Shown here piece after piece: positions 700 to 54,331 of a stretch of 64,000 bases of DNA. Origin of the DNA: Mustelus asterias (taxonomy: Eukaryota). Each line of letters opens with the position of its first letter. The stretch's first letter is position 1. The stretch is from assembly GCF_964213995.1 (NCBI RefSeq), contig NC_135830.1, positions 15,004,001 through 15,068,000 on the forward strand, given 5' to 3'. A model generated the notes under the pieces. That model saw only the letters and a list, made by a program, of their open reading frames with translations, was not told where the DNA came from and made no database searches. The position numbers and the translations under genes were made by a program.

Positions 700-970
700 T
701 TCAGCCTGTGATTCCTCTTTCAATATCCTGTAAAACGAGTTTACAAAAGTCATCAGTGTCAGTACAGGATAGAAATTCAGAACAGACAATTCTAGTTTCT
801 ATGGAACATTCTTTCCTATTTCAGTCCCAAAAAGCTGTAAATCTCCATCCCACACACTCTCCCTCCATTCTCACTCTGCTGTATCTAATATTCACCCTCC
901 CAATTCTCCTGAAGGTGCTGATTGAGGCTGATTGACAGATCCATGCTCACTGCTTCCTGTCCTGGACACA
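700..970 (-). other. Conserved ZNF 5' module (predicted exon 2, intron 2 and exon-3 acceptor) of ZNF1
   Basis: Near-identical to 4150-4370, 24223-24456 and 45690-45930; minus strand shows tgtgtccAG, GGAGG|GTGAAT and ttttacAG. Confidence 0.7.
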
Positions 971-981
971 GAGACCATAAC

Positions 982-1385
982 AAATAGGAGCTGCAGTCGG
1001 CCATTTGGTCCATCGAGCCTTTTAAACTATTCAATGAGATAATTCGTTCATCTACCTCAGCATCATTCTCCCCACACTAAACCCATATCCCTTGATATCC
1101 TCAATATCTAGAAACCAATCAATCTCTCTCTCGAAAATAGTTGATGACTGAGGCTTCACTGTCCTCAGGGGTTGAGAATTCCAAAGCTTCACCACATCCT
1201 TGAGTGAAGAAATCCCCCCACATCTTAGCTTTTGCTCCATCTTCTTCTCTGTTCCCCATAACCCTTGACACCCTTGTCAGTCAAAGATCTGTCTAACTGG
1301 AATATATTCAATGATCCTCAGCCTCCACTGGTCCCTGTGGAAGAGAAATCCAAAAGACTAACAACCCTCTGAGGGAAGAGATGTC
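982..1385 (-). mobile_element. Old CR1/L2 3'-end fragments in ZNF intron 1 (paralogous copies at 12235-12630 and 30710-31100)
   Basis: Degenerate C-terminal ORF2 words (VKLWNS..FEREIDWFLD..IKGYG) followed by a 3'UTR hairpin region. Confidence 0.65.
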
Positions 1386-2055
1386 TGGAAATATATAACG
1401 TAGCTACAGTTCCATATTACAAGATATTCAGATCCCAAGGAATATGACTCTTTCTAGATGTGACAGTTGAGATTTCTGCCTGTGATTCCTCGTTCAAAAT
1501 CCTGTGAAATGAGTTTGCAAAAGTCATCACAGTCAGTATAGGATAGAAATTCAGAGCAGACAATTCTAGTTTCTATGGAATGTTATTTCCTATTTCATTC
1601 CCAAAATGTTGTAACTCTCCATCCATATCTATGGATTCTATTTAAAAATGAAAGTGGATGGGCACTTGAAGGAAATAAACTTTCAGGAGAATGGGGATAT
1701 AGAGTGGGAATGGGACTGGAATGTTATACAGAGAGTCAGCATGGACTTGAGTTACCGAATGGATTCCTTCTGTGCTGTAATGACTTTATGACTGGAAATG
1801 TATAACATCGCTGCAGCATTATATTATAATGCAAGAAATAATAATAAATGTATTTTACTACAGAAACATAAATAATATATCTAATCTGGGTACCTTATAA
1901 TAACACTAGACATATCTCTGTCCTATATTAATTTACTGTCCCCTTAAATGTCAGCCATCTCCTGGGGAAAGCTGCCCTTTAATGTGAACATTAGGAAAAA
2001 GACCATCCTTTTAGACAGACAAATAAATGTGTCAAGCTGAGGGAGCAAAGGATGT

Positions 2056-2532
2056 TCACCAGGCTGATTCAGGGAATCGCGGGACTGATGTATGAGGAGA
2101 GACTGACTGGGTTAGAATTGTTTTCATTGGAGTTCAGATGAATGAGGGGGGAGTCTCAAAGAGACTTATAAAATTCTAAGGGTCGAGACAGGATAGATGC
2201 AGGGAGGATGTTCCCGATGGAGTCCAGAACCGGGGGTCACAGTCTGAGGATTCAGGGCAGACCATTTAGGACGGATTTGAGGAGACATTTCTTCACCCAA
2301 AGAATAGTGACCCTGTGGAATTTATTACCACAGGAAGTGGTTGATGCCAAAACATTGAATGTATTCAAGAGGCGGCTGGATAAAGCACTTGGGGCGAATG
2401 GGATCACAGGTTATGGGGAAAAAGCAGGATTAGGCTATTGAGTTGGATGATTAGCCATGATTGTAATGAATGGCGGAGCAGGCTCGAAGGGCCAAATGGC
2501 CTCCTCCTGCTCCTATCTTCTATGTTTCTATA
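2056..2532 (+). mobile_element. 5'-truncated CR1/L2 LINE 3' end
   Basis: ORF 2208-2441 (GHSLRIQGRPFRTDLRRHFFTQR..GYG) and a ttctatgtttctat tail; interrupts GGATGT^CAATGTC of the ZNF intron-1 module. Confidence 0.85.
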
Positions 2533-2761
2533 TCAATGTCTTTAAGAGAGAGAGAGAGACCTGGGCCAACCTTTCCAGAGTCTGCAACCTCCCTGGATTC
2601 ACTTCCTTTCCCTTCAGTTGCTGCAAGTCCCCAATTTCCCCCAGAATGAGAAAAGAAATGGAAAGGGGGAGAAAAGAAAGTGTTTTACTCACAGATGTTG
2701 GCCTCTTTAAAGGAATGCAGTGCCAATTTGCAGATAGCACAGAAAGCCAGCAAAGGGGCCC

Positions 2762-2814
2762 TGCCGAAACCCGGGATTGAACCAGGGACCTTTAGATCTT
2801 CAGTCTCACACTCT
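2762..2814 (-). pseudogene. 5'-truncated tRNA-Phe(GAA) fragment
   Basis: Reverse complement agagtgtgagaCTGAAGAtctaaaggtccctggttcaatcccgggtttcggca matches the 3' two-thirds of vertebrate tRNA-Phe; 5' acceptor strand and A box missing, no CCA. Confidence 0.9.
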
Positions 2815-2859
2815 TAATTGCTTGCACTTAATTGAAACAGGAGGAAGTTTGAATCTGCC

Positions 2860-3285
2860 TGAAGCTCAATCTTCAATCACACAAGGCCCGCGCTCTGCTT
2901 GGCTGGAGGACCAGAATCCTTCCGGTCCTCCAACTCTTCCCATTGGCCAGAGCTGGTGAGGGGCAGTGAATCAAAAGTGCGCATGTGTGGGTTTTTAGGA
3001 GGAATGCGCATGTGCGGGTGTGGGGGGGGCCCGGGACAAAGCCGGCGCACTGACCATTGTCTGTCCGGGTCTTCCAACCTTTTCCAATGGACAACAGCTC
3101 AGCGCGGCTGGAGGGCAAAGTCCCGCCCACCCCCACGAGGGGCTCCGCCCCTCATTGTCTGTGCAGGGGATTGACCAATGGGAACTCTGGAGGACCGGAA
3201 GGACTCTGGTTCAGCTGCTCATTCCTGCCCAGCAAAACTGCTGCTGCTCTCTGTCTGAATGAAGATTGAGCTTTCGACAGACTCA
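2860..3285. promoter_or_regulatory. Predicted bidirectional CpG promoter between ZNF1(-) and ZNF2(+)
   Basis: Outward-facing CCAAT and CCGGAAG arms, two TGCGCATGTG NRF1-like sites, GC boxes, and an exon-1 motif (gaagattgagct..cagactcaaa) on both ends; inverted paralog at 22355-22900. Confidence 0.7.
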
Positions 3286-3309
3286 AGGAAGTGAAAAGGA
3301 TCAGCCAAT

Positions 3310-3420
3310 GCCTACGGCAATACCAGACTGAAAACGCCTGACCTCGGAAGCTAAGCAGACTCAGGCCTGTTTAGTACTTGAATAGGAGACCTCCTGGGAA
3401 TACTAGGTGTAGTAGACTTT
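3310..3420 (+). pseudogene. 5S rRNA pseudogene
   Basis: gcctacggcaataccag...ctcggaagctaagcag...ttagtacttg...ggagacc.cctgggaatac..ggtg..gtagacttt follows vertebrate 5S, with an ~10-nt internal deletion and many substitutions. Confidence 0.9.
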
Positions 3421-3747
3421 AGGATGGCATGGTGGCACAGTGGTTAGCACTGCTGCCTCACAGCGTCAGGGACTTGGGTCAATTCCTGTTTTGAGTCACT
3501 GTCTGTGTGGACTTTGCATGTTCTCTCCCCATGTGGGTTTCTCCCGGGTGCTCCGGTTTCCTCCCACGGTCCAAAAGATGTGCGGGTCGGGTGGATTGGC
3601 CATGTTAAATTGCCCCTTAGTGCCAGGGGGACAAGTTAGGGTAAATGCACAGAGGTACGGGGATAGGGCCCGAGTGGGATTGTGGTTGGTGCAGACTCGA
3701 TGGGACGAATGGCCTCCTTCTACACTATAGGATTGTATGATTCTATG
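3421..3747 (+). mobile_element. tRNA-derived SINE (V-SINE/HE1-like)
   Basis: Head tggcacagtggttagcactgctgcctcacag, central ggtttcctccca core, CR1-type attctatg tail. Confidence 0.85.
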
Positions 3748-4714
3748 AAGTGAATCCAGAGAGGGTGCAGACTCTGGAAAGGTTGGCCCAGGTCTCTCTC
3801 CCTCTCTTAAAGACATTGACGTTCTTTGCTCCCTCAGCTTGACACATTGATTTGCTTGGTTAAGAGGATGTTCTCTTTCCTAATGTTCAGAATTAAAGGG
3901 CTGCTTTCCCCAGGAGATGGCTGACATTTAAGGGGACAGTAAATTAATATAGGACAGAGATATATCTTGTGATTTTTTTTGTCACAGATTTGATAAATTA
4001 TTTATGGTTCTGCAATGAAGTAATTTATTCTTATTTATATTCTTGTAATATTGTTCTGTACCTCTGTTATATACTTCCAGTTATGGAGTCATTACAGCAA
4101 AGGGGTCCTTTCAGCCACACACGTCCATCCTGACTCTTGGTCAAAGTGAAGCAGTGAACATGGATCTGTCAATCAGCCTCAATCAGCACCTTCAGGAGAA
4201 TTGGGAGGGTGAGTATTAGATACAGCAGAGTGAGAATGGAGGGAGAGTGTGTGGGATGGAGATTCACAGGAATGAGAGAGGAAAGAATGTTCCATAGAAA
4301 CTAGAATTGTCTGTTCTGAATTTCTATCCTGTACTGACACTGATGCATTTTGTAAACTCCTTTTACAGGATATCTGAAGGTGATGATTTGCAGGCAGAAA
4401 TATCAAACCAAATGTCACACTAAGATCTCACAAATTCACTCTATTTATCGGAACCTGAATATCATCAGTCTTTCAATTTAGAAGGATAAATATTTGTCTG
4501 TTCTGTCTTTTTCAGGAGATCTTCAATATCAGTGTGCCTGGAAAAGCACTGAAACACACACACACCTGAGTGAGCGTGTTCCAGTGCACGGACTGTGGAA
4601 AGAGCTTTAACACAGTCTGAAAAAACATTGCATCATTCACATCAGGGAGAGAAATTAATTGAAACCAGCAGAGAAATTAAGTGAAACCAGCAGAGTCACA
4701 AGGACACCTGCACC

Positions 4715-5389
4715 ATGGAGAAACGGTGGAAATGTGGGGACTGTGGGAAGGGATTCAATTACCCATCAAAGCTGGAAACTCATCGACGCAGTCACACTGG
4801 GGAGAGACCATTCACCTGCTCTCAGTATGGGAAGGGATTTAGTCAATTCTCCCTTCTGCTTACACACCAGCGAGTTCACACCGGGGAGAGGCCGTTCACC
4901 TGTTCGGAGTGTGGGAAGGGATTCAGCGATTTACCCACACTGCGGAGACACCAGCGAGTTCACACTGGGGAGAGACCATTCACCTGCCCTGTTTGTGGAA
5001 ATGTTTTCAGCAATTCATCCACACTACTGACACACCAGCGAGTTCACACTGGAGACAGACCGTTCAATTGCTCTGACTGTGGAAAGGGATTCATTCAGTC
5101 ATCCCACTTGCTGACACACCAGCGGGTCCACAGAGGGGAAAAGCCATTCACCTGCTCTGAGTGTGGGAGAGGATTCAGTGATTCATCAAACCTGCTGACA
5201 CACCAGCGAGTTCACACTGAGAAGAAGCCATTCAACTGCTCTGTGTGTGGAAGGGGATTCAAACATTCAGCAACCGTGATGAAACACCAGCGAGTTCACA
5301 CCAGGGAGAGGCCGTTCACCTGCTCCATGTGTGGGAAGGGATTCACATTGTTCTGCAACCTGCAGAGACACCAGCGAGTTCACAAATGA
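4715..5389 (+). CDS. C2H2 zinc-finger gene ZNF2 (8 fingers, finger 2 has C->Y)
   Basis: 224-aa [13 protein letters not shown]...HQRVHK. Confidence 0.9.
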
Positions 5390-10119: not shown

Positions 10120-11475
10120 TCAGTTCCTGAAAGCTTCTGAAGCCGGCCTCTCAGGCAGAACATTTAAAGGGCTCTCCTTGGAGTGAGTGGCTTTGTGTCT
10201 CAGCAAGGTGGATGAATGAGTGAATCCCTTCCCACACACAGAGCAGGTGAATGGCCTCTCCCCAGTGTGAACTCGCTGGTGTATCCGCAGGCTGGATGAC
10301 CATTTAAACCTCTTTGAGCAGTGAGAGCAGCTGAACGGTCTCTCCTCAGTGTGAATGCGCTGGTGGGACACCAGTTCCTGAGAGCTTTTGAATCCGCTCC
10401 CACAGTCAGAGCATTTAAACGGTCTCTCATTGGTGTGAGTGAGATTGTGTGCGCGCAGGTTCGATGAAACAGTGAATCCCTTCCCACACACAGAGCAGGT
10501 GAACGGTCTCTCCCCAGTGTGAACTCGCTGGTGTTTCCGCAGGTCGGATGATGTTCTAAACCTCTTTGTGCAGTGAGAGCAGCTGAACGGTCTCTCCTCA
10601 GTGTGAGTGCGCTGGTGGGACATCAGCCCTCCAGAGCTTTTGAAACCACTCCCACAGTCAGAGCATTTAAAGGGTCTCTCCTGGGTGTGAGTGACTTTGT
10701 GTGTCAGCAGGTGGGATAATTGAGTGAATCCCTTCCCACACACAGAGCATTTAAACGGTCTCTCATTGGTGTGAGTGAAATTGTGCCTCTGCAGGTGGGA
10801 TGACTGAGTGAATCCCTTCCCACACACAGAGCAGGTGAACGGTCTCTCCTCGGTGTGAATTCGCTGGTGTCTCTGCAGGTCGGATGACGTTCTAAATCTC
10901 TTTGAGCACTGAGAGCAGCTGAACGGTCTCTCCTCAGTGTGAATGCGCTGGTGTTTCAGCAGTTCTCCAGAGCTTCTGAAACCACTCCCACAGTCAGAGC
11001 ATTTAAAGGGTCTCTCATTGGTGTGAGTGAAATTGTGTCTGTGCAGGTGGGATGAATGAGTGAATCCCTTCCCACACACCGAGCAGGTGAATGGCCTCTC
11101 CCCAGTGTGAACTCGCTGGTGTCTCCGCAGACCGGATGATGTTCTAAACCTCTTTGTGCAGTGAGAGCAGCTGAACGGTCTCTCCTCAGTGTGAATGCGC
11201 TGGTGGCCCATCAGTTCCCGAGAGCTTTTGAATCCGCTCCCACAGTCAGAGCACTTAAAGGGTCTCTCCTGAGTGTGAGTGACCTTGTGTTTCTGCAAGC
11301 TGAATGACTGAGTGAAACCCTCCCCACACACAAAGCAGGTGAATGGTCTCTCCCCAGTGTGAATGCGTTCATGAATTTCCAGCTCATTTGGGAACCTGTA
11401 TCTCTTCCCACAGTCCCCACATTTCCACGGTTTTTCCCTGATGCGGGTGTCCTTGTGACTCTCCAGGTTAAACAA
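10120..11475 (-). CDS. C2H2 zinc-finger gene ZNF3 (15 fingers; family ATG mutated, possible pseudogene)
   Basis: 451-codon open frame; ACC ATG of the paralogs reads ATC AGG here; degraded fingers continue to ~9772. Confidence 0.8.
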   Translation of the reverse strand: MFNLESHKDTRIREKPWKCGDCGKRYRFPNELEIHERIHTGERPFTCFVCGEGFTQSFSLQKHKVTHTQERPFKCSDCGSGFKSSRELMGHQRIHTEERPFSCSHCTKRFRTSSGLRRHQRVHTGERPFTCSVCGKGFTHSSHLHRHNFTHTNERPFKCSDCGSGFRSSGELLKHQRIHTEERPFSCSQCSKRFRTSSDLQRHQRIHTEERPFTCSVCGKGFTQSSHLQRHNFTHTNERPFKCSVCGKGFTQLSHLLTHKVTHTQERPFKCSDCGSGFKSSGGLMSHQRTHTEERPFSCSHCTKRFRTSSDLRKHQRVHTGERPFTCSVCGKGFTVSSNLRAHNLTHTNERPFKCSDCGSGFKSSQELVSHQRIHTEERPFSCSHCSKRFKWSSSLRIHQRVHTGERPFTCSVCGKGFTHSSTLLRHKATHSKESPLNVLPERPASEAFRN

Positions 11476-12739
11476 TCAGTTAAATCTCACACAGAACACG
11501 GGTACAGTCTCTCCCGCTGTGAATGCTGCGATGTATTTTCAGGCTGTGTAACTGGTTAAAGCTCTTTCCACACTCAGTGCACTGGAACACTCTCACTCGG
11601 GTGTGTGTATCTCAGTGCATTTCTAGTCACAGTGATGTTTACAATCTTTTGAAGCCAAGAGGCCAAACAAACATTTCTCCTGCTAGATTCAAAGGCCAAT
11701 GATATTCAGGTCTCAAGAAATCGAGTCACTCTGTCAGATCTAGGTGTGATGTTGGAGATTTCTGTCTGATTTCTCCTTGTCTAATATCCTGTAAGTCAAT
11801 TTAGAAAAAAAACATCACAATTCAGAATACGATCGAAATTCAAATCTACATTTCTAGTTTCTATGGAGCATTCATTAAAGACACAGTCATGGAGCATTAA
11901 ACTTGCCCAGCAGGGCCTCCCATATCAGCACACAGGCAGCTGCTTTGTGAGACTGCCCGCAGTACAGACAAGTCAGAGATAAGGGTGTCCTCAGAAGTGG
12001 GATTCATTGTGAAAGCTCAGGGACGGTTGATAAGATGCAGCAATTCTATGATTCTAATGAACATTCTTTCCTCTCTCATTCCCCAAAAGCTGTAAATCTC
12101 CATCCCACACACTCTCCCTCCATTCTCACTCTGCTGTATCTAATATTCACCCTCCCAATTCTCCTGAAGGTGCTGATTGAGGCTGATTGACAGATCCATG
12201 CTCACTGCTTCCTGTCCAGCACAGAAATCATAACAAATAGGAGCTGCAGTCAGCATTCGGCCCATCGAGTCTGCTCAACCATTCATTGAGATTATTGGTT
12301 GATCTACCTCTGCATTATTTTCCCCACACTGCCCCCATATCCATCGATATCTTCAATATCTAGAAACCTATCAATCCCTCTCTTGAAAATTTTTGATGAC
12401 TGAGGCTCTATAGTCCTCTGGGGTAGAGAATCCAAAACATCACCACATCCTTGAGTGAAGAAATCCTTCCTCATCTGAGCTTTCTCTCCATTTTCCAGCC
12501 TGTTCCCAATAATTATTGACTCCCTTGTCATTCAAAAACTGTCTAACTCATCCTTGAATATATTCAATCCCTCCACTGGTCCCTATGGAAGAGAAATCTA
12601 GATACTAACAATTCTCTGAGGGAAGAGATTGTTGGAAATATAAAATATAGCTGCAGTCCAAAATTACACAGCCAGATATAATAAGTGCATTGTATTACAG
12701 AGCTTAAATAATATATCGAATCTGTACCATATAACAACA

Positions 12740-15081: not shown

Positions 15082-15429
15082 TCAATGTCTTTAAGTCAGA
15101 AAGAGAGAGACCTGGGCCAACCTTTCCAGAGTGTGCAGCCTCCCTGGATTCACTTCCTTTCCCTTCAGTTGCTGCAAGTCCCCAATTTCCCCCAGAATGA
15201 GAAAAGAATTGGAAAGGGGGATAAAAGAAAGTGTTTTACTCACAGATGTGGGAGACAGAAGGAAGTTTGAATCTGTCTGTACTCAATCTTCATTCAGAGA
15301 GACCTCTTTTTAGGTCAAACCAAGTAAACAAACTCAAATTAAATCAGGACTAAGTAAAAGGGGCAGCTCCCCAAAAAGGAGGGGGAACAGCCCGAACAGA
15401 AATCAAAATGCAAAGGAAACTTAAAAACA

Positions 15430-19323: not shown

Positions 19324-19344
19324 GTCAGCAGCTTTGTGCCACCG

Positions 19345-22225: not shown

Positions 22226-22354
22226 CAGCTCACCTCCCTCCCAAAGTTTCCGCCCGGTTCCGACCCGGGGCCCTCCGCTACACGGGCGAACACGAATCCA
22301 CCTCACCCCGGAAACAAAACTGGGTGTTGTCCGAGAGGAGGCACGTCTCAGGCC

Positions 22355-22930
22355 GTCTGAAGCTCAATCTTCATTCAGAGAGAGAGCAGCAGTTAGTTTT
22401 GCTGGGCAGGAATGAGCAGCTGAACAAGCTCATTGTCCACTTCCGCATTCAGACAATGGAGGAGCGTTGATTGGCTGGAGGCTGGAGTCCTTCCGGTCCT
22501 CCAGGATGCCCATTGGCCAGAGCCTGTGAGAGGCAGGACCGGAGCAGAGTCCTTCCGGTCCTCCAGAGTTCCCATTGGTCAATCCCCCGCAGACAGACAA
22601 TGAGGGGCGGAGCCCCACGTGGGGGTGGGCGGGACTTTGCCCTCCAGCCGCGCTGAGCTGTTGTCCAAGGGGAAAGGCTGGAAGACCCGGACAGACAATG
22701 GTCAGTGCGCCGGCTTTGTCCGGGCCCCGCCCCACACCCGCACATGCGCATTTACCCTAAAAACTCGCACATGCGCATTTTTGATTCACTGTCTAGCTCT
22801 GGCCAATGAGAAGAGTTGGAGGACCGGAAGGCCTCAGGTTTCCCAGCCAATCGGAGCGTGGCTTTTTTGCGTGAATGAAGATAGGGCATCAGACAGACTG
22901 AAACTTCCTCCTGTTCCAACATCTGTGAGT
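22355..22930. promoter_or_regulatory. Predicted bidirectional promoter for ZNF3(-)/ZNF4(+) with the ZNF4 exon-1 donor CT|GTGAGT at 22925
   Basis: Inverted paralog of 2860-3285; CCAAT, CCGGAAG, GCACATGCGCA x2, GGGCGG boxes. Confidence 0.7.
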
Positions 22931-23312
22931 AAAACACTTTGTTTTCTCCACCTTTCCATTTCTTTTCTCATTCTGGGGGAAATTGGGGACTTGCAGCAAC
23001 TGAAGGGAAAGGAAGTGAATCCAGGGAGGCTGCAGACTCTGGAAAGGTTGGCCCAGGTCTCTCTCTGTTAAAGACATTGACATCCTTTGCTCCCTCAGCT
23101 TGACACATTGATTTGTCTGGCTCAAAGGTCCCTTTCCTAATGTTCACAATTAAAGGGCTGGTTTCCCCAGGAAATATCTGACATTTAAGGGGACTGTAAA
23201 TTAATATAGATTAGAGATATGTTCAGTATTGTCATATGGCAAGATTAGACATGTATGGTTCTGCAGTAATGTACATTTATTATTATTTCTAATCTGTAAT
23301 ATCGTACGGTCG

Positions 23313-23907: not shown

Positions 23908-24222
23908 TGTAGCTACGGGATATATTTCCAGTAATAGAGTCATTACAGCACAGAAGGAGTCCATTGGACCATTTGGGTCAATGCCGACTTTCTGTCAGTG
24001 TCGAGTGGATCCCATTCTGCAGCACCTCCAATTTCATTTCCAAGTTATTGATCATCTCTGCTTGGACACCCTCACAAGTAGTTCAAGATCATGATCAATT
24101 GTAGCCCCCTGTATCTTAGCCAACTGAAACAATTCTATCCATTAAACATATTTTTAGGCCCGTAATAGAGACATATATCTGTCTGGCCGCCTGCATGGAG
24201 ATTTTCAGCTCTCTGTGTCCAG

Positions 24223-24288
24223 GGCAGGAAGCAGTGAGCATGGATCTGTCAATCAGCCTCAATCAGCACCTTCAGGAGAATTGGGAGG
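24223..24288 (+). other. Predicted 66-nt exon 2 of ZNF4 (ultraconserved module)
   Basis: tgtgtccAG acceptor at 24221-22, GT donor at 24289, next acceptor tttcacAG at 24455-56. Confidence 0.6.
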
Positions 24289-24813
24289 GTGAATATTAGA
24301 TACAGCAGAGTGAGAATGGAGGGAGAGTGTGTGGGATGGAGATTCACAGCTTTTGGGGAATGAGAGAGGAAACAATGTTCCATAGAAACTAGAATTGTCT
24401 GTTCTGAATTTCTAATCTGTGCTGACTGTGATGACTTTTGTAAACTCCTTTCACAGAATATGAGGTGGTGAGGATTGACAGACAGAAATCTCGAACAAAT
24501 GTCATGTCAAATTCTGACAGTCATTCAGTTCATCTGGACGTGAATACCATCGGCCTTTCAATCTAAAAGGAGAAATATTTTTCTGTTCTGTCTGCTTCAG
24601 ACTTTCTTTTTGCATAAATGTGACTGGAAAAATGCCGTGACACACATATACCCGAGTGAGAGTGTTCCAGTGCACTGACTGTGGAAAGAGCTTTAAACAG
24701 TTACACAGCCTGAAAATACATCGCAGCATCCACAGTGGGGAGAGACTGTACCCGTGTTCTGTGTGAGATTGAACTAATAGTTTAACCTGGAGAGTCACAA
24801 GGACACCCGCACC

Positions 24814-25308
24814 ATGGAGAAACTGTGGAAATGTGGGGACTGTGGGAAGGGATTCAATTACCCATCTCTGCTAGAAACTCATCGCCGCAGCCACACTGGG
24901 GAGAGACCATTCACCTGCTCTGATTGTGGGAAAGGGTTTACTCAGTTATCCAGCCTGCAGATACACCAGCGAGTTCACACTGGGGAGAGGCCGTTCACCT
25001 GCTCTCAGTGTGGGGAAGGATTCACTCAGTTATCCCACCTGCAGAGACACCAGCGAGTTCACACTGGGGGGAGACCGTTCACCTGCTCTCAGTGTGGGAA
25101 GGGATTCAGTCAGTTATCCAACCTGCAGACACACCAGCGAGTTCACACTGGGGAGAAACCGTTCACCTGCTCTCAATGTGGGGAGGGATTCACTCGGTCA
25201 TCCCACCTGCGAGTTCACACTGGGGAGAAGCCATTCACCTGCTCTCAGTGTGGGAAGGGTTTCAGAGCTTCATCTGCCCTGCTGAGGCACCAACAAGTTC
25301 ACGAGTGA
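24814..25308 (+). CDS. C2H2 zinc-finger gene ZNF4 (6 fingers, finger 5 has a 4-aa deletion)
   Basis: 164-aa [13 protein letters not shown]...HQQVHE. Confidence 0.9.
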
Positions 25309-29526: not shown

Positions 29527-29870
29527 TCTCTCTGAATGAATATTGAGTACAGACAGACTCAAACTTCCTTCTGTCCCCCACATCTGTGAGTAAAACACAT
29601 TCTTTTATCCCCCTTTCCATTTCTTTTCTCATTCTGGGGGAAATTAGGGACTTGCAGCAACTGAAGGGAAAGGGAGTGAATCCAGGGAGGCTGCAGACTC
29701 TGGAAAGGTTGGCTCAGGTCCCCCTCTCTCTGACTTAAAGACATTGACATCCTTTGCTCCCTCAGCTTGACACATTGATTTGTCTGGCTAAAAGGATGGT
29801 CCCTTTCCGAATGTTCACAATTAAAGGGCTGGTTTCCCCAGGAGAAGGCTGACATTTAAGAGAACAATAA
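29527..29870 (+). other. ZNF5 exon-1/intron-1 conserved module (donor CT|GTGAGT at ~29586)
   Basis: Inverted match to 13380-13512 joined to 15088-15302. Confidence 0.65.
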
Positions 29871-30600: not shown

Positions 30601-31893
30601 TGTTGTTATATGGTTCGATATATTATTTATAGCTCTGTAATAAAATACACTTATTATATCTGGCTGTGTAATTTTGGACTGCAGCTATATTATATATTTC
30701 CAACAATCTCTTCCCTCAGAGAATTGTTAATATCTAGATTTCTCTTCCATAGGGACCAGTGGAGGGATTGAATATATTCAAGGATGAGTTGGACAGTTTT
30801 TGAATGACAAGGGAGTCAATAATTATTGGGAACAGGCTGGAAAATGGAGAGAAAGCTCAGATGAGGAAGGATTTCTTCACTCAAGGATGTGGTGATGTTT
30901 TGGATTCTCTACCCCAGAGGACTATAGAGCCTCAGTCATCAAGAATTTTCAAGAGAGGGATTGATAGGTTTCTAGATATTGAAGATATCGATGGATATGG
31001 GGGACAGTGTGGGGAAAATAATGCAGAGGTAGATCAACCAATAATCTCAATGAATGGTTGAGCAGATTCGATGGGCCGAATGCTGACTGCAGCTCCTATT
31101 TGTTCTGATTTCTGTGCTGGACAGGAAGCAGTGAACATGGATCTGTCAATCAGCCTCAATCAGCACCTTCAGGAGAATTGGGAGGGTGAATATTAGATAC
31201 AGCAGAGTGAGAATGGAGGGAGAGTGTGTGGGATGGAGATTCACAGCTTTTGGGGAATGAGAGGGGAAAGAATGTTCATTAGAATCATAGAATTGCTGCA
31301 TCTTATCAACCGTCCCTGAGCTTTCACAATGAATCCCACTTCTGAGGCCACCCTTATCTGTGACTTGTCTGTACTGCTGGCAGTCTCACAAAGCAGCTGC
31401 CTGTGTGCTGATACGGGAGGCCCTGCTGGGCAGGTTTAATGCTCCATGACTGTGTCTTTAATGAATGCTCCATGAACTAGAAATGTAGATTTGAATTTCG
31501 ATCATATTCTGAATTGCGATGTTTTTTCTAAATTGACTTACAGGATATTAGACAAGGAGAAATCAGACAGAAATCTCCAACATCACATCGAGATCTGACA
31601 GAGTGACTCGATTTCTTGGGACCTGAATATCATCGGCCTTTGAATCTAACAGGAGAAATGTTTGTTTGGCCTCTTGGCTTCAAAAGATTGTAAACATCGC
31701 TGTGACGAGAAATGCACTGAGATACACACACCCGAGTGAGAGTGTTCCAGTGCACTGAGTGTGGAAAGAGCTTTAACCAGTTACACAGCCTGAAAGTGCA
31801 TCACAGCATTCACAGTGGGGAGAGACTGTACCCGTGTTCTGTGTGAGATTTAACTGATTGTTTAACCTGGAGAGTCACAAGGACACCCGCACC

Positions 31894-32819
31894 ATGGAGA
31901 AACCGTGGAAATGTGGGGACTGTGGGAAGGGATTCATATCCCCATCTCGGCTGGAAATTCATCAACGCAGTCACACTGGGGAGAGGCCGTTCACCTGCTC
32001 TGTGTGTGGGAAGGGATTCACTCAGTTATCCAGCCTGCAGAAACACAATCTCACTCATACCAATGAGAGACCATTTAAATGCTGTGACTGTGGGAGTGGT
32101 TTTAAAAGCTCTCAGGTACTGATGATGCACCAGCGCATTCACACTGAGGACAGACCGTTCAGCTGCTCTCACTGCACAAAGAAATTTAGAACTTCATCCA
32201 ACCTGCAGATTCACCAGCGAGTTCACACTGGGAGAGACCGTTCACCTGCTCTGTGTGTGGGAAGGGATTCACTCAGTCATCCAGCCTGAAGACACACCGA
32301 GTCATTCATACCAATGAGAGACCCTTTGAATGCTCTGACTGTGGGAATGGCTTCAAAAGCTCTCAGAAACTGATCGTCCACCAGCGCATTCACACTGAGG
32401 AGAGACCGTTCAGCTGCTCTCACTGCACAAAGAGGTTTAGAATATCTTCAGCATTGCTGAACCATCAGCGAGTTCACACCAGGGAGAGACCATTCAGCTG
32501 CTCGGTGTGTGTGAAAGGATTTACTCAGTTCTCCAGCCTCCGCAGACACAATCTCACTCACACCCAGGAGAGACCCTTTAAATGTTCTGACTGTGGGAGT
32601 GGCTTCAAAAGCTCTCATGAACTGATTACCCACCAGTGCATTCACACTGGGGAGTGACCGTTCACCTGCTCTGACTGTGGGAAGGGATTCGCTCAGTCAT
32701 GCAACCTACGGGTACATCAGCGAGTTCACACTGGGCAGAGACTGTTCACCTGCTCTGACTGTGGGAAGGGATTCACTCGGTCAGCAAACTTGGTGAAACA
32801 CCAGCGAGTTCACAAGTGA
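31894..32819 (+). pseudogene. C2H2 zinc-finger ZNF5 (11 fingers; frameshift at ~32230 and in-frame TGA at 32655)
   Basis: ORFs 31858-32289 and 32253-32657; fingers continue to cacaagTGA; inverted paralog of ZNF3. Confidence 0.8.
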
Positions 32820-32902
32820 TTACAGTTCTGGGATTATTCTTGTGAATCTTTCTTGCCCCTTCTCCAGTGCCTTTATTTCCTTAATCTAAATGGAGATCAC
32901 AA

Positions 32903-34100: not shown

Positions 34101-34217
34101 AATCAATCAAGTTAGAAAGATGTTGACATTGCTGCCAGTGTAGTCTGGTGATGAAAATATAGACTGGTTCAGTGAAATGTAGGTAACAGGTAGAATTGAT
34201 ATCTAATGAGGACTTTA

Positions 34218-35290: not shown

Positions 35291-35627
35291 TTGTTCATTG
35301 TTCCACAGGACCAGGCTGAGGAGAAGGCAGTTGGTTTGTTCACTACATTTATTTATTTATTTTAAGTTAAAGTTGTGTAAAAAATCGGAGGTTTTCTTTT
35401 AAAACAGGAAGTGGGCCCAGCAGGAGTCTGGGAAGGTTTTTGGAGGGTTTAAAAGTAGGCCGCACTTTTGAGCGGGCAGCGTCGTTAGCGGGCAGCAGAG
35501 TGAGCAGGAGGCAGAGTGAAAGTTGTAGGGCTTTGGCTCACAGGGCTTAGGCAGAAAGGGCGAGCAGGGGTGAGTTGAATTCATTTTTTGCTGTTTCTAC
35601 CTGGTACTGGCAAGGTATCTAGAGGGG

Positions 35628-36554
35628 ATGGGCGTGAAGGCAGTGCAATGTTCCTCTTGCACTATGTTCGAGGTGAGGGACGACGTCAATGTCCCTGCTG
35701 ATTATACCTGTGAGAAGTGCATCCATCTGCTGCTCCTCCAAAACCGTGTAAGGGAACTGGAGCTGGAGTTGGAGGAACTTAGGATCATTAGGGATGCAGA
35801 GATGGCCATAGACAGAAGCTTCAGGGATACAGTTACTCCGCGGAATGAAAATAGATGGGTGACGGTGAGAGGGGCTGGGAAGAAGCAGTCGGTGCAGGGA
35901 TCCCCTGTGGTCGTTCCCCTTAGCAACAAGTATTCCGCTTTGGATACGGTTGAGGGGGACGACATACCAGTGGTGAGCCGCAGTGAGAGGATCTCCGGCA
36001 CTGAGTCCGTCCCTGTGGCTCAGGAGGGTAAGGAGGAGAGCGGGAGGGCAATAGTTATTGGGGACTCGTTAGTTAGAGGGATAGATAGGAGGTTCTGTGG
36101 CAGCAAAAGAGACTCGTGGATGGTTTGTTGCCTACCGGATGCCAGGGTCCGTGACGTCTCGGACCGTGTTTTCCGGATTCTTAAGGGGGAGGGGAAACAG
36201 TCACAAGTCGTGGTACACATTGGTACCAACGACATAGGTAAGAGAAGGGACGGGGATTTAAAACAGGAATTTCGGGAGCTGGGCTGGAAGCTGAGAGCAA
36301 AGACAAAACATGTGGTCATCTCTGGTACGCTACCGGTGCCACGTGATAGCGAGTTGAGGAACAGGGAGAGAGTGCACTTAAACATGTGGTTGCAGGGATG
36401 GTGCAGGAGGGAGGGTTTCAGATACGTGGATAATTGGAACACGTTCTGGGGAAGGTGGGACCTCTACAAACAGGACGGGGTGCACCTGAACCAGAGGGGC
36501 ACCAATATCCAGGGAGGGAAATTTGCTACGGCTCTTCAGGGGGATTTAAACTAA
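35628..36554 (+). CDS. CR1 ORF1: CxxC..CxxC Zn motif, coiled coil and SGNH esterase-like domain
   Basis: CSSC..CEKC, LELELEEL heptads, IGDSLVR, HIGTND, DGVH. Confidence 0.93.
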   Translation: MGVKAVQCSSCTMFEVRDDVNVPADYTCEKCIHLLLLQNRVRELELELEELRIIRDAEMAIDRSFRDTVTPRNENRWVTVRGAGKKQSVQGSPVVVPLSNKYSALDTVEGDDIPVVSRSERISGTESVPVAQEGKEESGRAIVIGDSLVRGIDRRFCGSKRDSWMVCCLPDARVRDVSDRVFRILKGEGKQSQVVVHIGTNDIGKRRDGDLKQEFRELGWKLRAKTKHVVISGTLPVPRDSELRNRERVHLNMWLQGWCRREGFRYVDNWNTFWGRWDLYKQDGVHLNQRGTNIQGGKFATALQGDLN

Positions 36555-39451
36555 TTTGTCAGGGGAGTGGGAAAAGGAGTTGTAGTCCGGAAGTCAGTGT
36601 TGAGGGTGGTGAGATATTGGGGAAGGTATCAAGGTCAAGGGTGGGTACCGGTAGACAGGAAGATGGGTTGAAGTGTGTCTACTTCAATGCAAGGAGCATC
36701 CGGAACAAGGTGGATGAACTTGGGGCGTGGATTGCTACTTGGGACTACGATGTTGTGGCCATTACGGAGACGTGGGTAGAACAAGGACAGGAATGGTTGT
36801 TGGACGTTCCGGGGTATAGATGTTTCAGTAAGTGTAGGGAAGCTGGTAAAAGAGGTGGAGGAGTAGCATTGTTAATCAAGGATAGTTTAACGGCTGCGGA
36901 AAAGCACTTTGAGGGGGATATGCACACAGAGGTAATATGGGCTGCAGTTAGAAACAGGAAAGGAGCGGTCACGCTGCTAGGAGTTTACTATAGGCCCCCA
37001 AATAGTAATAGAGATGTGGAGGAAGAAATTGCTAAGCAGATTATGGATACGTGTGGGGGTCACAGGGTAGTTGTCATGGGGGACTTTAACTTTCCAAATA
37101 TTGATTGGAACCTTTGTAGGTCAAATAGTTTGGATGGGGCACTTTTTGTGCAGTGTGTGCAGGAGGGTTTCCTGACACAATATGTGGATAGGCCGACAAG
37201 GGGTGAGGCCACATTGGATTTGGTACTGGGAAATGAACCGGGCCAAGTGTTAGATTTGGTTGTGGGAGAGAACTTTGGAGATAGTGACCACAATTCGGTG
37301 TCTTTTGTTATTGCAATGGAGAGGGATAGGGCCGGATGGCAGGGCAAGGCTTACAATTGGGGGAGAGGTAATTATGATGCGATTAGGCAAGAATTAGGGG
37401 GCATAAGATGGGAACAGAAACTGTCAGGGAAAGGCACTGATGAAAAGTGGAACTTTTTCAAGGAACAAATACTGGGTGTCCTTGATAGGTATGTCCCTGT
37501 CAGGCAGGGAGGAAATGGCCGAGTGAGGGAACCGTGGTTCACAAAAGAGGTGGAATGTCTTGTGAAAAGGAAGAGGGAAGCTTATGTAGGGATGAGGAAA
37601 CAAGGTTCAGATGGCTCGATTGAGGGTTACAAGTTAGCAAGGAATGAGCTGAAAAAGGGGCTGAGGAGAGCTAGGAGGGGACATGAGAAGTCCTTGGCGG
37701 GTCGGATCAAGGAAAACCCCAAGGCTTTTTACTCTTATGTGAGGAATAAAAGAATGACCAGGGTGAGGTTAGGGCCGGTCAAGGACAGTGGTGGGAACTT
37801 GTGTATGGAATCAGTAGAGATAGGCGAGGTGATGAATGAATACTTTTCTTCAGTGTTCACCAAGGAGAGGGGCCATGTTTTTCAGGAAGAGAAGGTGTTA
37901 CAGGCTAATAGGCTGGAGGAAATAGATGTTCGGAGGGAGGATGTATTGGCAGTTTTGAATAAACTGAAGGTCGATAAGTCCCCTGGGCCTGATGAAATGT
38001 ATCCTAGGATTCTTTGGGAGGCGAGGGATGAGATTGCAGAGCCTTTGGCTTTGATCTTTGGGTCCTCGCTGTCCACGGGGATGGTGCCAGAGGACTGGAG
38101 AGTGGCAAATGTTGTTCCTCTGTTTAAGAAAGGGAATAGAAATGACCCTGGTAATTATAGACCGGTTAGTCTGACTTCAGTGGTTGGTAAATTGATGGAA
38201 AAGGTCCTGAGGGATGGGATTTACGACCATTTAGAAAGATGCGGATTAATCCGGGATAGTCAGCACGGATTTGTGAAGGGTAAATCGTGCCTCACAAATT
38301 TGATAGAATTTTTTGAGGAGGTAACTAGGTGTGTTGATGAAGGTAGGGCGGTTGATGTCATATACATGGATTTTAGTAAGGCGTTTGATAAGGTCCCCCA
38401 TGGTCGGCTTATGATGAAAGTAAGGAGGTGTGGGATAGAGGGAAAGTTGGCCGATTGGATAGGTAACTGGCTATCTGATCGAAGACAGAGGGTGGTGGTG
38501 GATGGAAAATTTTCGGACTGGAGGCAGGTTGCTAGCGGAGTGCCGCAGGGATCGGTGCTTGGTCCTCTGCTCTTTGTGATTTTTATTAATGACTTCGAGG
38601 AGGGGGCTGAAGGGTGGATCAGTAAATTTGCTGATGACACCAAGATTGGTGGAGTAGTGGATGAGGTGGAGGGGTGTTGTAGGCTGCAAAGAGACATAGA
38701 TAGGATGCAAAGCTGGGCTGAAAAATGGCAAATGGAGTTTAACCCTGATAAATGTGAGGTGATTCATTTTGGTAGGACAAATTTAAATGTGGATTACAGG
38801 GTCAAAGGTAGGGTTCTGAAGACTGTGGAGGAACAGAGAGATCTTGGGGTCCATATCCACAGATCTCCAAAGGTTGCCACTCAAGTGGATAGAGCTGTGA
38901 AGAAGGCATATAGTGTGTTAGCTTTTATTAACAGGGGGTTGGAGTTTAAGAGCCGTGGGGTTATGCTGCAACTGTACAGGACCTTGGTGAGACCGCATTT
39001 GGAATATTGCGTGCAGTTCTGGTCACCTCACTATAGGAAGGATGTGGAAGCGCTGGAAAGAGTGCAGAGGAGATTTACCAGGATGCTGCCTGGTTTGGAG
39101 TGTCGGTCTTATGAGGAAAGGTTGAGGGAGCTGGGGCTGTTCTCTCTGGAGCGGAGGAGATTGAGGGGAGACTTAATAGAGGTTTATAAAATGATGAAGG
39201 GGATAGATCGAGTGAACGTTCAAAGACTATTTCCTCGGGTGGATGGAGCTATTACAAGGGGGCATAACTATAGGGTTCATGGTGGGAGATATAGGAAGGA
39301 TATCAGAGGTAGGTTCTTCACGCAGAGAGTGGTTGGGGTGTGGAATGGACTGCCTGCAGTGATAGTGGAGTCAGACACTTTAGGAACATTTAAGTGGTTA
39401 TTGGATAGGCACATGGAGCACACCAGGATGGTAGGGAGTGGGATAGCTTGA
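36434..39451 (+). CDS. CR1 ORF2 (APE endonuclease and RT); no AUG before the endonuclease, lies in the -1 frame of ORF1
   Basis: YFNARS, ITETW, MGDFN, LDL, SDH; QGSVLGP, FADD; first in-frame ATG only at 36920. Confidence 0.95.
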   Translation: MEHVLGKVGPLQTGRGAPEPEGHQYPGREICYGSSGGFKLICQGSGKRSCSPEVSVEGGEILGKVSRSRVGTGRQEDGLKCVYFNARSIRNKVDELGAWIATWDYDVVAITETWVEQGQEWLLDVPGYRCFSKCREAGKRGGGVALLIKDSLTAAEKHFEGDMHTEVIWAAVRNRKGAVTLLGVYYRPPNSNRDVEEEIAKQIMDTCGGHRVVVMGDFNFPNIDWNLCRSNSLDGALFVQCVQEGFLTQYVDRPTRGEATLDLVLGNEPGQVLDLVVGENFGDSDHNSVSFVIAMERDRAGWQGKAYNWGRGNYDAIRQELGGIRWEQKLSGKGTDEKWNFFKEQILGVLDRYVPVRQGGNGRVREPWFTKEVECLVKRKREAYVGMRKQGSDGSIEGYKLARNELKKGLRRARRGHEKSLAGRIKENPKAFYSYVRNKRMTRVRLGPVKDSGGNLCMESVEIGEVMNEYFSSVFTKERGHVFQEEKVLQANRLEEIDVRREDVLAVLNKLKVDKSPGPDEMYPRILWEARDEIAEPLALIFGSSLSTGMVPEDWRVANVVPLFKKGNRNDPGNYRPVSLTSVVGKLMEKVLRDGIYDHLERCGLIRDSQHGFVKGKSCLTNLIEFFEEVTRCVDEGRAVDVIYMDFSKAFDKVPHGRLMMKVRRCGIEGKLADWIGNWLSDRRQRVVVDGKFSDWRQVASGVPQGSVLGPLLFVIFINDFEEGAEGWISKFADDTKIGGVVDEVEGCCRLQRDIDRMQSWAEKWQMEFNPDKCEVIHFGRTNLNVDYRVKGRVLKTVEEQRDLGVHIHRSPKVATQVDRAVKKAYSVLAFINRGLEFKSRGVMLQLYRTLVRPHLEYCVQFWSPHYRKDVEALERVQRRFTRMLPGLECRSYEERLRELGLFSLERRRLRGDLIEVYKMMKGIDRVNVQRLFPRVDGAITRGHNYRVHGGRYRKDIRGRFFTQRVVGVWNGLPAVIVESDTLGTFKWLLDRHMEHTRMVGSGIA

Positions 39452-43008: not shown

Positions 43009-43076
43009 TGAATATAATGAAGCAATGTAATGGGCATCTTGTTGATTTTCAGCCTGGGTGAATACAGTGACCTGGA

Positions 43077-43715
43077 GTTTTATGACCCTTTTGGAATTGT
43101 TGGGTGGAGCCTGATTGAAAGTCAGGTGCTGTCTTTGGACAGTTTTTTTTTTAACAGGAGAAAGTTTTAGTTTCATTTTGTCACAAGCTGTCTGGACTGC
43201 AAACTGAAAGCAGTGTTTGTCGTCTCTCTCTCGAGAATGAAGATTCCGCTGCCTGAGAGTTGCCAGCTGGAACATAGAAGCAAGCAGTCTCTCTCTCTCT
43301 CGGTTTTGGAAGTTCCAGGACAGGGAAGGCAGAGTTTGAATTCAACATTTTAAGCGCTAATTCACAGCAGGTGTTAAAAAGCTGCCAAATCCAGCATCAC
43401 GTGAGCAAACCTGCTTTCTGTGCAAAACCTAGAATGGGGTGTATATTTGTAGGGATTATTTGATTTGGAACACTAAGCTGCACTGGTTGATATAAGAAAG
43501 ATCATGGTTGCTTTTTATTGCAATTGGTAAAAGTTATGCTATTTTTTCTAATTATATTTTAACTGTGTTCTTAAATTAACTTTGTTTGATAAAAGCTTCC
43601 TAGTGGGTCACTTGAATCGTACCTGGAGTGAAACACCTTACACTCACTCGAGTGCAAATCTTATGGCTCGGCTGACTTTGTAAAACACCTTGGATTTCTG
43701 ACCTGGATCATAACA
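43077..43715 (+). mobile_element. Putative solo LTR related to 23313-23907
   Basis: Ends ...ctgacctggatcataaca; shares gtgggtca.ttgaatc.tacctg.agtgaaaca. Confidence 0.45.
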
Positions 43716-43861
43716 CATTTCACCCACACCCAAGGTGAGTTATTCCAATTCCTTTATTGTCCAGGACAATATGTTTGCAATATTTTCAAAACAGAAATTC
43801 GACCTGCACATTTGATTTCAGGTATTAACATATTCTGTTAGTTTGTTCTTTATTGTCAATG

Positions 43862-44155
43862 TCAGGCTGGGGTTGTTCCCCCTGGAGCAAAGGAGGTTGA
43901 GGGGAGATTTGATAGAGGTGGACAAGATTCTGACAGGTTTAGATAAAGTGGACAAAGAAAAGCTGTTCCCATTAGCTGATGGGACAAGGATGAGGGGGAC
44001 ATAGATTGAAGGTTTTGGGTCAGAGATGCAGGTGGAGATGTGATGAAGAATATTTTGATGCAGCGAATGGTAATGACCTGGAACTCCCTGCCTACGAGGG
44101 TGGAGGAAGTGGAGACAATAAACAATTACAAAGGAAATTGGATGGACATTTGGGG
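43862..44155 (+). mobile_element. CR1/L2 3' fragment
   Basis: RLGLFPLEQRRLRGDLIEV-like frame followed by a WNSLP segment. Confidence 0.75.
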
Positions 44156-44419
44156 GGTTTCAAACAGAAATTCTGACTAAATATCTCTGAACTTCCTAAC
44201 ACCCGGTCACTCTGTGATCTTTGTGAAATTGAAAACCAGGTATTTGCAACAAGACTGAAAGAGCATCGGTCCACTGGAGGCAAAGTCGTGAGACCGGCCA
44301 GTCCAGCAGAAAGAAACCCTCCGACCCTCCCCATTGACCAACTGTGAGAATGAACAAAATGCAGTCCTGGTGTAATTGAGAGCAGAAACAATAACAGCAG
44401 AATCTAATCCCCATATTCA

Positions 44420-45342
44420 CTAGTGAACTTGTTGGTGTGTCAGCAGGGTGGATGAATCACAGAATCCCTTCCCACACTGAGAGCAGATGAACAGTTTCTC
44501 CCGGTGTGAACTTGCTGGTGTGATTGCAGGATGGATAACCGAGTGAATCCCTTCCCACACACAGGGCAGGTGAATGGCCTCTCTCCAGAGTGAACTCGCT
44601 GGTGTCTCCGCAGATTAGATAACTGAGTGAATCCCTTTCCACACTGAGAGCAGGTGAATGGCCTCTCCCCGGTGTGAACTCGCTGGTGTGTCTGCAGGTT
44701 TGATAAATCAGTGAATCCCTTCCCACACTGAGAGCAGGTGAACGGTCTCTCCCCAGTGTGAACTCGCTGGTGTGTCTGCAGGTTTGATAAATCAGTGAAT
44801 CCCTTCCCACACTGAGAGCAGGTGAACGGTCTCTCCCCAGTGTGAACTCGCTGGTGTGTCTGCAGGGTGTACAACTGAGTGAATCCCTTCCCACACTGAG
44901 AGCAAGTGAATGGTCTCTCCCCAGTGTGAACTCGCTGGTGTGTCTGCAGGTGAGATAACTGAGTGAATCTTTTCCCACATGCAGAGCAGCTGAATGGCCT
45001 CTCGCCTGTGTGAACACGCTGGTGTTTCTGTAGGTTGGATGACTTACTGAATCCCTTCCCACACTGAGAGCAGGTGAATGGCCTCTCCCCAGTGTGAACT
45101 CGCTGGTGTGTCTGCAGGCTTGATATCTGAGTAAATCCCTTCCCACACTGACAGCAGGTGAATGCACTCTCACCAGTGTGAACTTGCTGGTGTCTCTGCA
45201 GAGTGGATGAATCAGTGAATCCCTTCCCACACACCCAGCAGGCGAACGGCCTCTCCCCAGTGTGGCTGCGCCGATGAACTTCCAGTAGAGAGGGCGCTTT
45301 GTATCTCTTCCCACAGTCTTCACATTTCCACGGTTTTTCCAT
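44420..45342 (-). CDS. C2H2 zinc-finger gene ZNF6 (10 fingers plus an 11th behind a 1-nt frameshift at ~44500)
   Basis: 300-aa [13 protein letters not shown]...; the last finger ends at TAG 44420-22 in the shifted frame. Confidence 0.88.
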
Positions 45343-46082
45343 ATTGTCGGTCTCCTTGTATCATTGGAGGTCAATCATTTGAAGCCTTGTCCACACAGAA
45401 CACGGGTACAGTCTCTCCCCACTGTGAATGCAGCGATGTTTTTTCAGGCTGTGTCACTGGTTAAAGCTCTTTCCACTGTCAGTGCACTGGAACACTCTCA
45501 CTCGGGTGTGTGTTTGTGTCCCGGTGTTTTTCCAGTCACACTGCTGCTTAAAATCTTGCAGTAGACAGACCGGTCAAACATTTCTCCTTCCCATTCAGAG
45601 GCTAAGGATATTTAGTTTCCAAGGAATCGAGTGACTCTGTCAGATCGAGATGTGATCGTTAAGATTTATCGGTGTGATTCCTCTAATATCCTGTGAAAAC
45701 AATTTACAAAATTCATCAGTGTCAGTACAGGATAGAAATTCAGAACAGACAATTCTAGTTTCTATGGAACATTCTTTCCTCTCTCATTCCCCAAAAGCTG
45801 TAAATCTCCATCCCACACACTCTCCCTCCATTCTCACTCTGCTGTATCTAATATTCACCCTCCCAATTCTCCTGAAGGTGCTGATTGAGGCTGATTGACA
45901 GATCCACGCTCACTGCTTCCTGTCCTGGACACAGAGCTGAAAATCTCCATGCAGGCTGCCAGTCCAAAAGAAATATGGCTACATTCTCGACTAAGAATGT
46001 TTTAACTGGATTGTTTCAGTGAGTGAAGATACAGGGGGGTTGTGATTGATGATGATATTGAACTTGCTGCCAACGTGGGTGA

Positions 46083-54330: not shown

Positions 54331-54331
54331 C

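Follow-up and report, generated by a model that had tools for sequence, protein, structure and literature searches.

The zinc finger cluster and its 117-bp block

The 64-kb stretch of DNA analyzed here (hereafter the window) carries eight clusters of C2H2 zinc fingers in repeat-rich surroundings of vertebrate type. The genes belong to a family of finger-only C2H2 zinc finger (ZNF) genes, and in six of them a nearly invariant block of 117 bp, the subject of this report, precedes the finger exon. Genes with a full block copy were labeled A–F, as were their copies; G and H designate further finger genes, and I a truncated 5′ piece. All exon and intron designations, including "exon 2", follow a sequence-based model with candidate splice sites. 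The fingers lie as follows:

24814..25308, plus strand: finger-only C2H2 open reading frame (ORF) of gene D
44-358(-), 4733-5383(+), 10183-11581(-), 31751-32813(+), 44423-45324(-), 52177-53163(-), 58060-59046(+): the other seven finger clusters

The original prediction had announced six near-invariant copies of the block. BLASTN indeed placed six full copies within 1–3 bp of the predicted positions, each 117 bp long, together with three partial copies that had been missed (the DECA motif mentioned for copy I is described below):

840..956, minus strand: copy A, majority sequence
4148..4264, plus strand: copy B, different at columns 11 and 66; unique upstream flank and an 8-bp deletion just downstream
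12095..12211, minus strand: copy C, majority sequence; recent twin of E
24228..24344, plus strand: copy D, majority sequence; reference for the cross-organism word and contig comparisons
31125..31241, plus strand: copy E, resembles B rather than twin C at column 11 and at the first base past the block
45803..45919, minus strand: copy F, column 13 gives GTG where the others have ATG; preceded by another promoter type
55356..55383, minus strand: partial copy I, the initial 28 nt of the block without differences from D; an insertion interrupts it immediately behind DECA; compact form
57551..57584, plus strand: partial copy G, limited to the last 34 nt, with 3 differences
53646..53672, minus strand: remnant in gene H, last 27 nt, 89% identity; different 5′ architecture

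Only three of the 117 columns vary (11, 13 and 66). Individual copies show 0–2 differences from the majority sequence and 0–3 from one another, corresponding to a mean pairwise identity of 99.0%, and the block is free of CpG. The replacement of the internal ATG by GTG in the sixth copy (F) was confirmed as well. C and E, whose upstream repeats differ at 5 of 429 sites, are recent twins, so that the six paralogs originally counted amount to five independent lineages. In D (24195-24210, 24336-24351) and F (45935-45950, 45796-45811) the block is bracketed by a 16-bp imperfect direct repeat with a spacing of 139–141 bp.

Conservation relative to neighboring sequence

Parts of the same genes provided yardsticks for the divergence of the block:

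24457..24640, plus strand: start of the last exon, a frameshifted former linker taken as neutral yardstick
24640..24760, plus strand: relic zinc finger within the last exon, toward its 5′ end; indels disrupt several copies
22926..23066, plus strand: second conserved module, at the exon-1 donor and the start of intron 1 (first 141 bp), present in five genes
2551-2691(-), 15102-15242(-), 29587-29727(+), 56064-56205(+): other copies of the intron-1 module; partial copies at 3747-3800(+) and 55482-55554(-)

Mean identity was 73.2% at the start of the last exon, 87.2% in the relic finger, 82.3% at the 3′ end of intron 2 and 87.4% in the middle of intron 1. The block (99.0% vs 73.2–87.4%) is thus more conserved than its flanks, as had been predicted. 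The accompanying statement that the introns diverge much more holds for the latter two regions, but not for the first 141 bp of intron 1, which share a mean identity of 95.4%. The start of the last exon and the finger arrays do diverge more; with 14–23% divergence per codon position over the first 50 finger codons, the fingers are less well kept than the block of the same genes.

Given the exon-3-start tree of these six genes, the block would be expected to have accumulated about 110 changes; about four were seen. The resulting rate ratio of 0.037 means that the block changes at roughly 4% of the neighboring rate. Furthermore, A and C differ at 64 of 410 sites in the repeat that they share directly upstream, but at 0 of 117 sites in the block (binomial P=2e-9). 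Both the rate ratio and the binomial tests therefore place the block below the neutral rate among paralogs. The relic finger showed a ratio of 0.37 and other non-coding patches ranged from 0.18 to 0.56, the block being the peak in a series of conserved non-coding 5′ modules. Since the intron-1 module (ratio 0.18) is also devoid of CpG, a low mutation rate does not explain the lead of the block.

Homologues of the dead finger upstream of the ATG occur in 8/8 genes and are about 93% identical among C, D and F. The former linker contains a TGA in 8/8 copies. In gene H (53383-54381(-)) the frame is still open where the last exon begins, across the former linker, which suggests that the family may once have possessed a longer N-terminus. 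The finger array of gene E (31751-32813(+)) is split over three frames and hence probably represents a young pseudogene or sequence errors.

Promoters and gene architecture

Three gene pairs (A/B, C/D and I/G) are arranged head-to-head on homologous promoter-like regions, while a second promoter type is common to F and H. The elements upstream of the block are:

22340..22925, strandless: putative bidirectional promoter and first exons of C/D, homologous to 2832-3273 (A/B, 87-94%) and partly to 55939-56060 (I/G)
47073..47214, minus strand: promoter-like region of F with TGATTGACGG, followed by CCAAT 9 bp on; 78% identical to 54186-54321 of H (10-bp spacer)
24146..24227, plus strand: "pre" segment of about 80 bp, kept in D, F and I; in the compact form joined directly to the intron-1 module

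The C/D region probably functions as a promoter, judging from its CpG content, CCAAT boxes and a motif that we take to be NRF1-like. In what we call the compact form of the gene, the intron-1 module, the 80-bp pre segment and the block are contiguous, and the block follows the end of exon 1 at a distance of about 190 bp. This form was seen in copy I, in the unnamed database ORF P0002 and in joints from 23024 to 24146/24150 (runs X1, X7 and X18 of the cross-organism comparison below). In A–E, its parts are kept apart by extra intron sequence and repeats. F has the H-type promoter and lacks the intron-1 module, yet its block matches at 116/117 positions. The 40 bp upstream of the block vary as well: they are unique in B and consist of a repeat in A, C and E. 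A CCAG acceptor is present in A, D and F and lost in C and E, with the block interior unaffected.

Several insertions and duplications accompany these genes. Intron 1 of gene A contains an internal duplicate (1423-1624(-)) of parts of intron 2 and the exon-3 start, from which the block is missing. Exon 1 of gene C harbors an apparently intact two-ORF non-LTR retrotransposon (LTR, long terminal repeat; 15430-21639(-), 764 + 1304 aa), presumably Tx1-like; a 92.6% fragment of it precedes twin E, at 27945-29747. A long open two-ORF long interspersed nuclear element (36434-39451(+), 1005 codons; 35574-36554(+), 326 codons) is, we assume, CR1-like. In intron 1 of gene B, a 5S rRNA match (3310-3418(+), 63.5 bits, above the Rfam gathering score) is directly followed by a repeat resembling a short interspersed nuclear element (SINE).

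A DECA motif in every full copy

Closer inspection of the block sequence revealed a known transcription factor motif and a short repeat:

24246..24255 (copy D), minus strand: DECA motif TGATTGACAG, exact
929-938, 4166-4175, 12184-12193, 31143-31152, 45892-45901, 55356-55365: further occurrences of the motif
24249..24267, plus strand: 9-bp direct repeat TCAATCAGC with 10-bp spacing

All seven exact decamers in the window fall within block copies, namely the six full ones and partial copy I. Counted as one ancestral event, the chance of finding one named decamer in 117 bp is ~2e-4. DECA is a Pbx-Prep dimer site and the main Prep motif at the zebrafish blastula stage (PMC6023610). The TCAATCAGC repeat may provide a second PBX-type half-site, located one helical turn from DECA. 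DECA-like words together with CCAAT also occur in the promoters of F (47177-47200(-), 9 bp apart) and H (54202-54226(+), 10 bp apart); the spacing described for the composite DECA-CCAAT element is 11 bp (10.64898/2026.02.16.706105). A scan for DECA-CCAAT yielded matches only at 47200(-) and 54202(+), and the block itself contains no CCAAT at the canonical spacing.

The block in other organisms

Eleven 31-mers sampled from the block of copy D were compared with 24 listed runs, 19 of which contained half or more of them. Organism A, flagged as a possible source of the window and thus left out of the count, had 11/11, while seven other organism labels had 8–10 of 11. Three runs labeled "shark metagenome" each contained 9/11 words, which makes a shark the probable source of the window. 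The word share was 0.18 in run X20 and 0.00 in X21–X24, which were not used as evidence. Run X10, labeled hot springs metagenome, contained 10/11 words, probably through contamination.

Contigs were compared for 4 of the 24 runs over 22750-24790, based on filtered records and 40 of 370 difference rows. Every compared contig of organism A differed from the window at several unique sites of the flanks (23344, 23362, 23918, 23990, 24100, 24101, 24498), and its nearest flank contigs had 10/225, 16/256 and 23/192 other letters. Within these filtered records, organism A looks like a relative rather than the source of the window. In organism E, 24218-24349 was covered by one contig of 132 letters, 2 of them different, at a depth of 42.6, compared with 3–7 for the other listed contigs of this organism; the 132-letter contig looks like a collapse of paralogs with the same borders. 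The nearest exon-3-start contig of this organism, which may be a paralog, showed 18/205 (9%) other letters, and at this rate 2 or fewer differences in the block contig have a probability of P=5e-4. None of the 40 difference rows shown, out of 370 in total, falls within the block, although this is a weak point, the basis of their ranking not being stated.

Summed contig depth over the block amounted to 101,000–150,000 in X1 and 22,000–47,000 in X7, compared with ~93–162 and 37–61, respectively, for contigs that look single-copy. These values hint at hundreds to about a thousand block copies, contig depth being no measure of copy number. For the same reason, no weight is given to the fact that the block had low depth compared with the relic finger in the two runs guessed to be RNA. 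A block 25-mer gave no match in the metagenome and viral contig collections, and neither did a 23-mer of the intron-1 module in the genome and viral contig collections. When P0002 was sought in metagenome contigs, 599 candidate stretches emerged, none of which was confirmed, and the DNA behind P0002 was not found there.

Selection or gene conversion

Concerted evolution by focal gene conversion, which would place the block at the center of recurrent non-allelic tracts in the open chromatin of the 5′ region and leave most of its bases without function, is in our judgment somewhat unlikely to be the main cause of the conservation. Nevertheless, several observations fit it well. At two sites, column 11 and the position just past the block, E agrees with B and not with its 96–99% identical twin C; such discordant sites are what a conversion tract would leave behind, although recurrent change at a few tolerated sites could also have produced them. 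Downstream of the block, identity tails off gradually (99%, ~92%, 89–96%, 73%), and it drops to 66–79% beyond a 193-bp insertion in C and E, as if heterology had halted the tracts. The identity between C and E is patchy (99% in the upstream repeat, 94% in the intron-1 module, 89% in the finger region), and the other non-coding patches, including the dead finger, are slowed as well. In P0002, three of seven differences are CpG where the window has CpA, as if a decayed variant had spread (a weak point), and its identity of at most 89% would be compatible with divergence between species. Moreover, conversion has been put forward for the promoter homology of V1R genes (PMC1955453).

Other features of the block are difficult to reconcile with conversion as the sole cause. 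Its 5′ edge is sharp between A and C despite the upstream repeat that both share, and B retains an 8-bp deletion inside the supposed tract. Under neutral conversion, the consensus of a family should drift between species at the neutral rate. The block contig of organism E, however, differs at 2/132 positions against 9% in its nearest flank, and 8–11 of the 11 words recur under eight organism labels. This limited drift between organisms argues for selection on the nucleotides with conversion assisting. The view that conversion alone suffices is thereby weakened, while the homoplasies of copy E make a contribution of conversion probable. Crossing-over at the block was also considered: A is nearest to C/E by both upstream-repeat and exon-3-start identity, the tree support is weak, and such an event is not needed.

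RNA-level, coding and transposon hypotheses

Alternatively, the block might act in the transcript, as an exon of the 5′ untranslated region with a strong-context upstream ORF (uORF) and an intronic G-rich splicing enhancer, or as a family-wide target of small RNAs, thereby tuning ZNF output through exon inclusion, intron retention, uORF repression or decay. The relevant features are:

24240..24299, plus strand: short uORF MDLSISLNQHLQENWEGEY in the unspliced reading; ATG in 5/6 copies
24289..24456, plus strand: candidate intron 2 of D, GT...AG, 168 nt

In 5/6 copies the ATG is preceded by a purine at −3 and followed by G at +4, and these five encode an identical unspliced peptide. A plausible donor (AGG|GTGAAT; GTGAGT in B) lies within the conserved stretch; conservation crosses this candidate site, as had been noticed originally, and extends 56 nt further. 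The candidate intron measures 160–168 nt in A, B, D and F, and 358–362 nt in C and E because of the ~193-bp insertion. However, the acceptor is not conserved, F has GTG in place of the ATG, and the spliced uORF stops 2–37 codons past the junction. The block folds no better than shuffled sequences (z +0.7 to +1.5), which gives no indication of a structured non-coding RNA or microRNA, and no Rfam family matched within it; a hairpin between acceptor tract and intron start appeared in one fold, again no better than shuffles (z 0.68). The joint from 24288 to 24457 was absent from the 15 joints shown, of 162, and the block contig of organism E, from a run whose RNA nature is a guess, reads straight through the donor. 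The block hence counts as a candidate exon, and we consider an RNA-level element unlikely. Among the cis-elements originally proposed, a DNA site is favored and this remains the best-fitting class of explanation; RNA structure is unsupported, and a splicing element is disfavored, as A, B, C and E have a replaced or mutated acceptor side but keep the block interior.

Far less probable is a coding N-terminal domain exon, the shark counterpart of KRAB or FiNZ. The block does precede the finger exon, two frames stay open over its exonic half, and the open linker of gene H leaves room for a formerly coding region. Across the candidate splice, however, every block frame ends inside the block or 2–37 codons past the junction in 6/6 copies, whereas the fingers start about 350 nt beyond it, so that no frame reaches them in any of the six. 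Together with the lack of third-position variation and conservation 56 nt past the donor, this supports the nucleotide-level constraint that had been predicted. Pfam returned no family at E<=0.1, KRAB included, for either open frame, and the comparison with KRAB and FiNZ exons therefore holds for position only. A HMMER search of 1.84 billion representatives gave three matches, all unnamed ORFs: P0003, a repetitive weak match, was dropped, and the two that match the block comprise 72 and 94 aa and carry no fingers. Word-indexed protein searches with two block frames were blank and uninformative, as the control (open linker of gene H) was also blank and an exact look-up showed two ZNF proteins of the window to be absent from the protein collection. 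For the six genes, the coding-exon reading is already largely refuted. A young transposable element or SINE fragment, repeatedly inserted, as the high summed depth in two DNA runs and the 16-bp repeats flanking the block in D and F might suggest, is equally implausible, given that the six full copies in the window share place, strand and homologous downstream flanks before the finger exon, show neither terminal inverted repeats nor a tRNA or 5S head, and are matched by an inner 3′ part in gene H.

A putative promoter-proximal control element

We tentatively favor the interpretation that the block is a family-wide, promoter-proximal cis-regulatory (enhancer) module under purifying selection on its nucleotides, with conversion helping, through which TALE factors and partners co-activate the family. 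The block is non-coding, changes at a small fraction of the neighboring rate, is near-identical in other organisms and occurs independently of promoter type and upstream acceptor. It is this independence that points to an element acting at the DNA rather than the RNA level. In the compact gene form, the block would act as a promoter-proximal enhancer from its position shortly behind exon 1. Dimers of PBX with PREP/MEIS (TALE) would bind DECA and the phased second half-site, and further factors might occupy the purine-rich 3′ half. Hundreds of ZNF genes could thus be switched on together, perhaps in the early embryo or the germ line, by analogy with zebrafish, and occasional gene conversion between paralogs would help to erase variants. 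Lacking CpG, the block could remain readable even where the clusters are methylated. That the block is bound, that it activates the genes and when it does so are all inferred.

Several observations weigh against this interpretation. DECA and the half-site cover only ~20 of the 117 invariant bases, no CCAAT stands at the canonical spacing, and with hundreds of motifs known, one chance match is not rare. Diverged copies exist: record 6 of X1 deviates by 22 letters and 2 gaps across 24194-24372 (179 bases that include the block), and the count for records 26–31 of X7 is 25–32 letters, these records being taken from 32 of 15,216 pieces, with long ones favored. P0001 ends in a different frame. P0002 requires at least 7 changes in 63 nt of block, one of them inside DECA and predicted to break it, and only 3 changes in 54 nt of the intron-1 module, so the block is not the best-kept part there. 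Finally, the distances of the organisms are not established, and the divergence between species would be overstated if, as may be the case, the flank contigs are paralogs.

A more far-reaching possibility, which we regard as quite unlikely, is that sharks, in which KRAB-ZNFs are largely lacking, coordinate hundreds to about a thousand finger-only ZNF genes via this single element, near-invariant among paralogs as well as among species and read over its full length by one trans-acting system such as a long ZNF array of the family itself or a guide RNA. The block would then be a cis "barcode" replacing a shared protein domain.

Large ZNF families are thought to police transposons, and shared N-terminal domains such as KRAB and FiNZ explain their joint action. 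In these finger-only, shark-type ZNF genes, the best-kept sequence is non-coding. If it is a common control element, it offers a single handle on the whole family, of which our searches found no earlier study, for instance as a reporter, a guide or morpholino target or a site for chromatin immunoprecipitation. The question of selection versus conversion in paralogous non-coding conservation thereby becomes directly testable in existing shark assemblies. Should conversion be the only cause, the block would be an unusually sharp natural conversion focus, albeit of lower interest.

Comparison with known systems

A close parallel is found in the promoter homology peaks of mouse V1R genes (PMC1955453; Stewart and Lane 2007), where a non-coding 5′ region is likewise far better kept among paralogs than its surroundings and has been read as shared cis-elements, possibly homogenized by conversion. 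The V1R peaks exceed 500 bp, contain start sites and show no low rates in orthologous comparisons (PMC1955453). The block, in contrast, measures 117 bp, is ~99% identical, lies downstream of exon 1 and appears to be kept between species.

The FiNZ-ZNF genes of zebrafish (Wells et al., 10.1101/2022.11.29.518450) also form a large clustered family whose upstream exon is conserved; a single morpholino of 25 nt matches 447/684 of them without mismatch, and they are expressed in waves at genome activation, with possible self-repression (10.1101/2022.11.29.518450). FiNZ, however, is a coding domain of 28 aa in frame with the fingers (10.1101/2022.11.29.518450), whereas the block is out of frame and its conservation enters the intron. 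The non-coding state of the block and the shark-metagenome runs argue against FiNZ membership, FiNZ being glutamate-rich and cyprinid-specific.

With the DECA and DECA-CCAAT elements bound by TALE factors (PMC6023610; 10.64898/2026.02.16.706105; 10.1101/720102), the family shares the exact TGATTGACAG in every full copy and the DECA-like words with CCAAT in the F and H promoters. ZNF clusters are not mentioned in the two zebrafish papers among these, nor ZNF genes in 10.1101/720102. Unlike those elements, the block lacks a canonically spaced CCAAT, and it adds a second half-site at a distance of 10 bp as well as about 95 other invariant bases.

The ZNF274/ATRX/H3K9me3 system relies on a KRAB protein. 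Its domains resemble the situation proposed here in that a sequence common to paralogs permits family-wide ZNF control, but in mammals the system acts on the finger-coding 3′ exon, unlike the 5′ block (PMC4939920, PMC3039671). KRAB-domain families are reported to be enriched among those lost in cartilaginous fishes (PMC8455134); KRAB-type domains in fishes are treated in PMC11603059 and PMC8455134, and catshark ZNF clusters are mentioned in passing (PMC11979771). A description of the 117-bp element was not found in the literature, coverage being thin for subscription papers and supplements, where shark genome supplements could describe such clusters. The block appears to be undescribed: its kind, the paralogous conserved non-coding element, is known, and what sets it apart is its unusual sharpness and its probable copy number.

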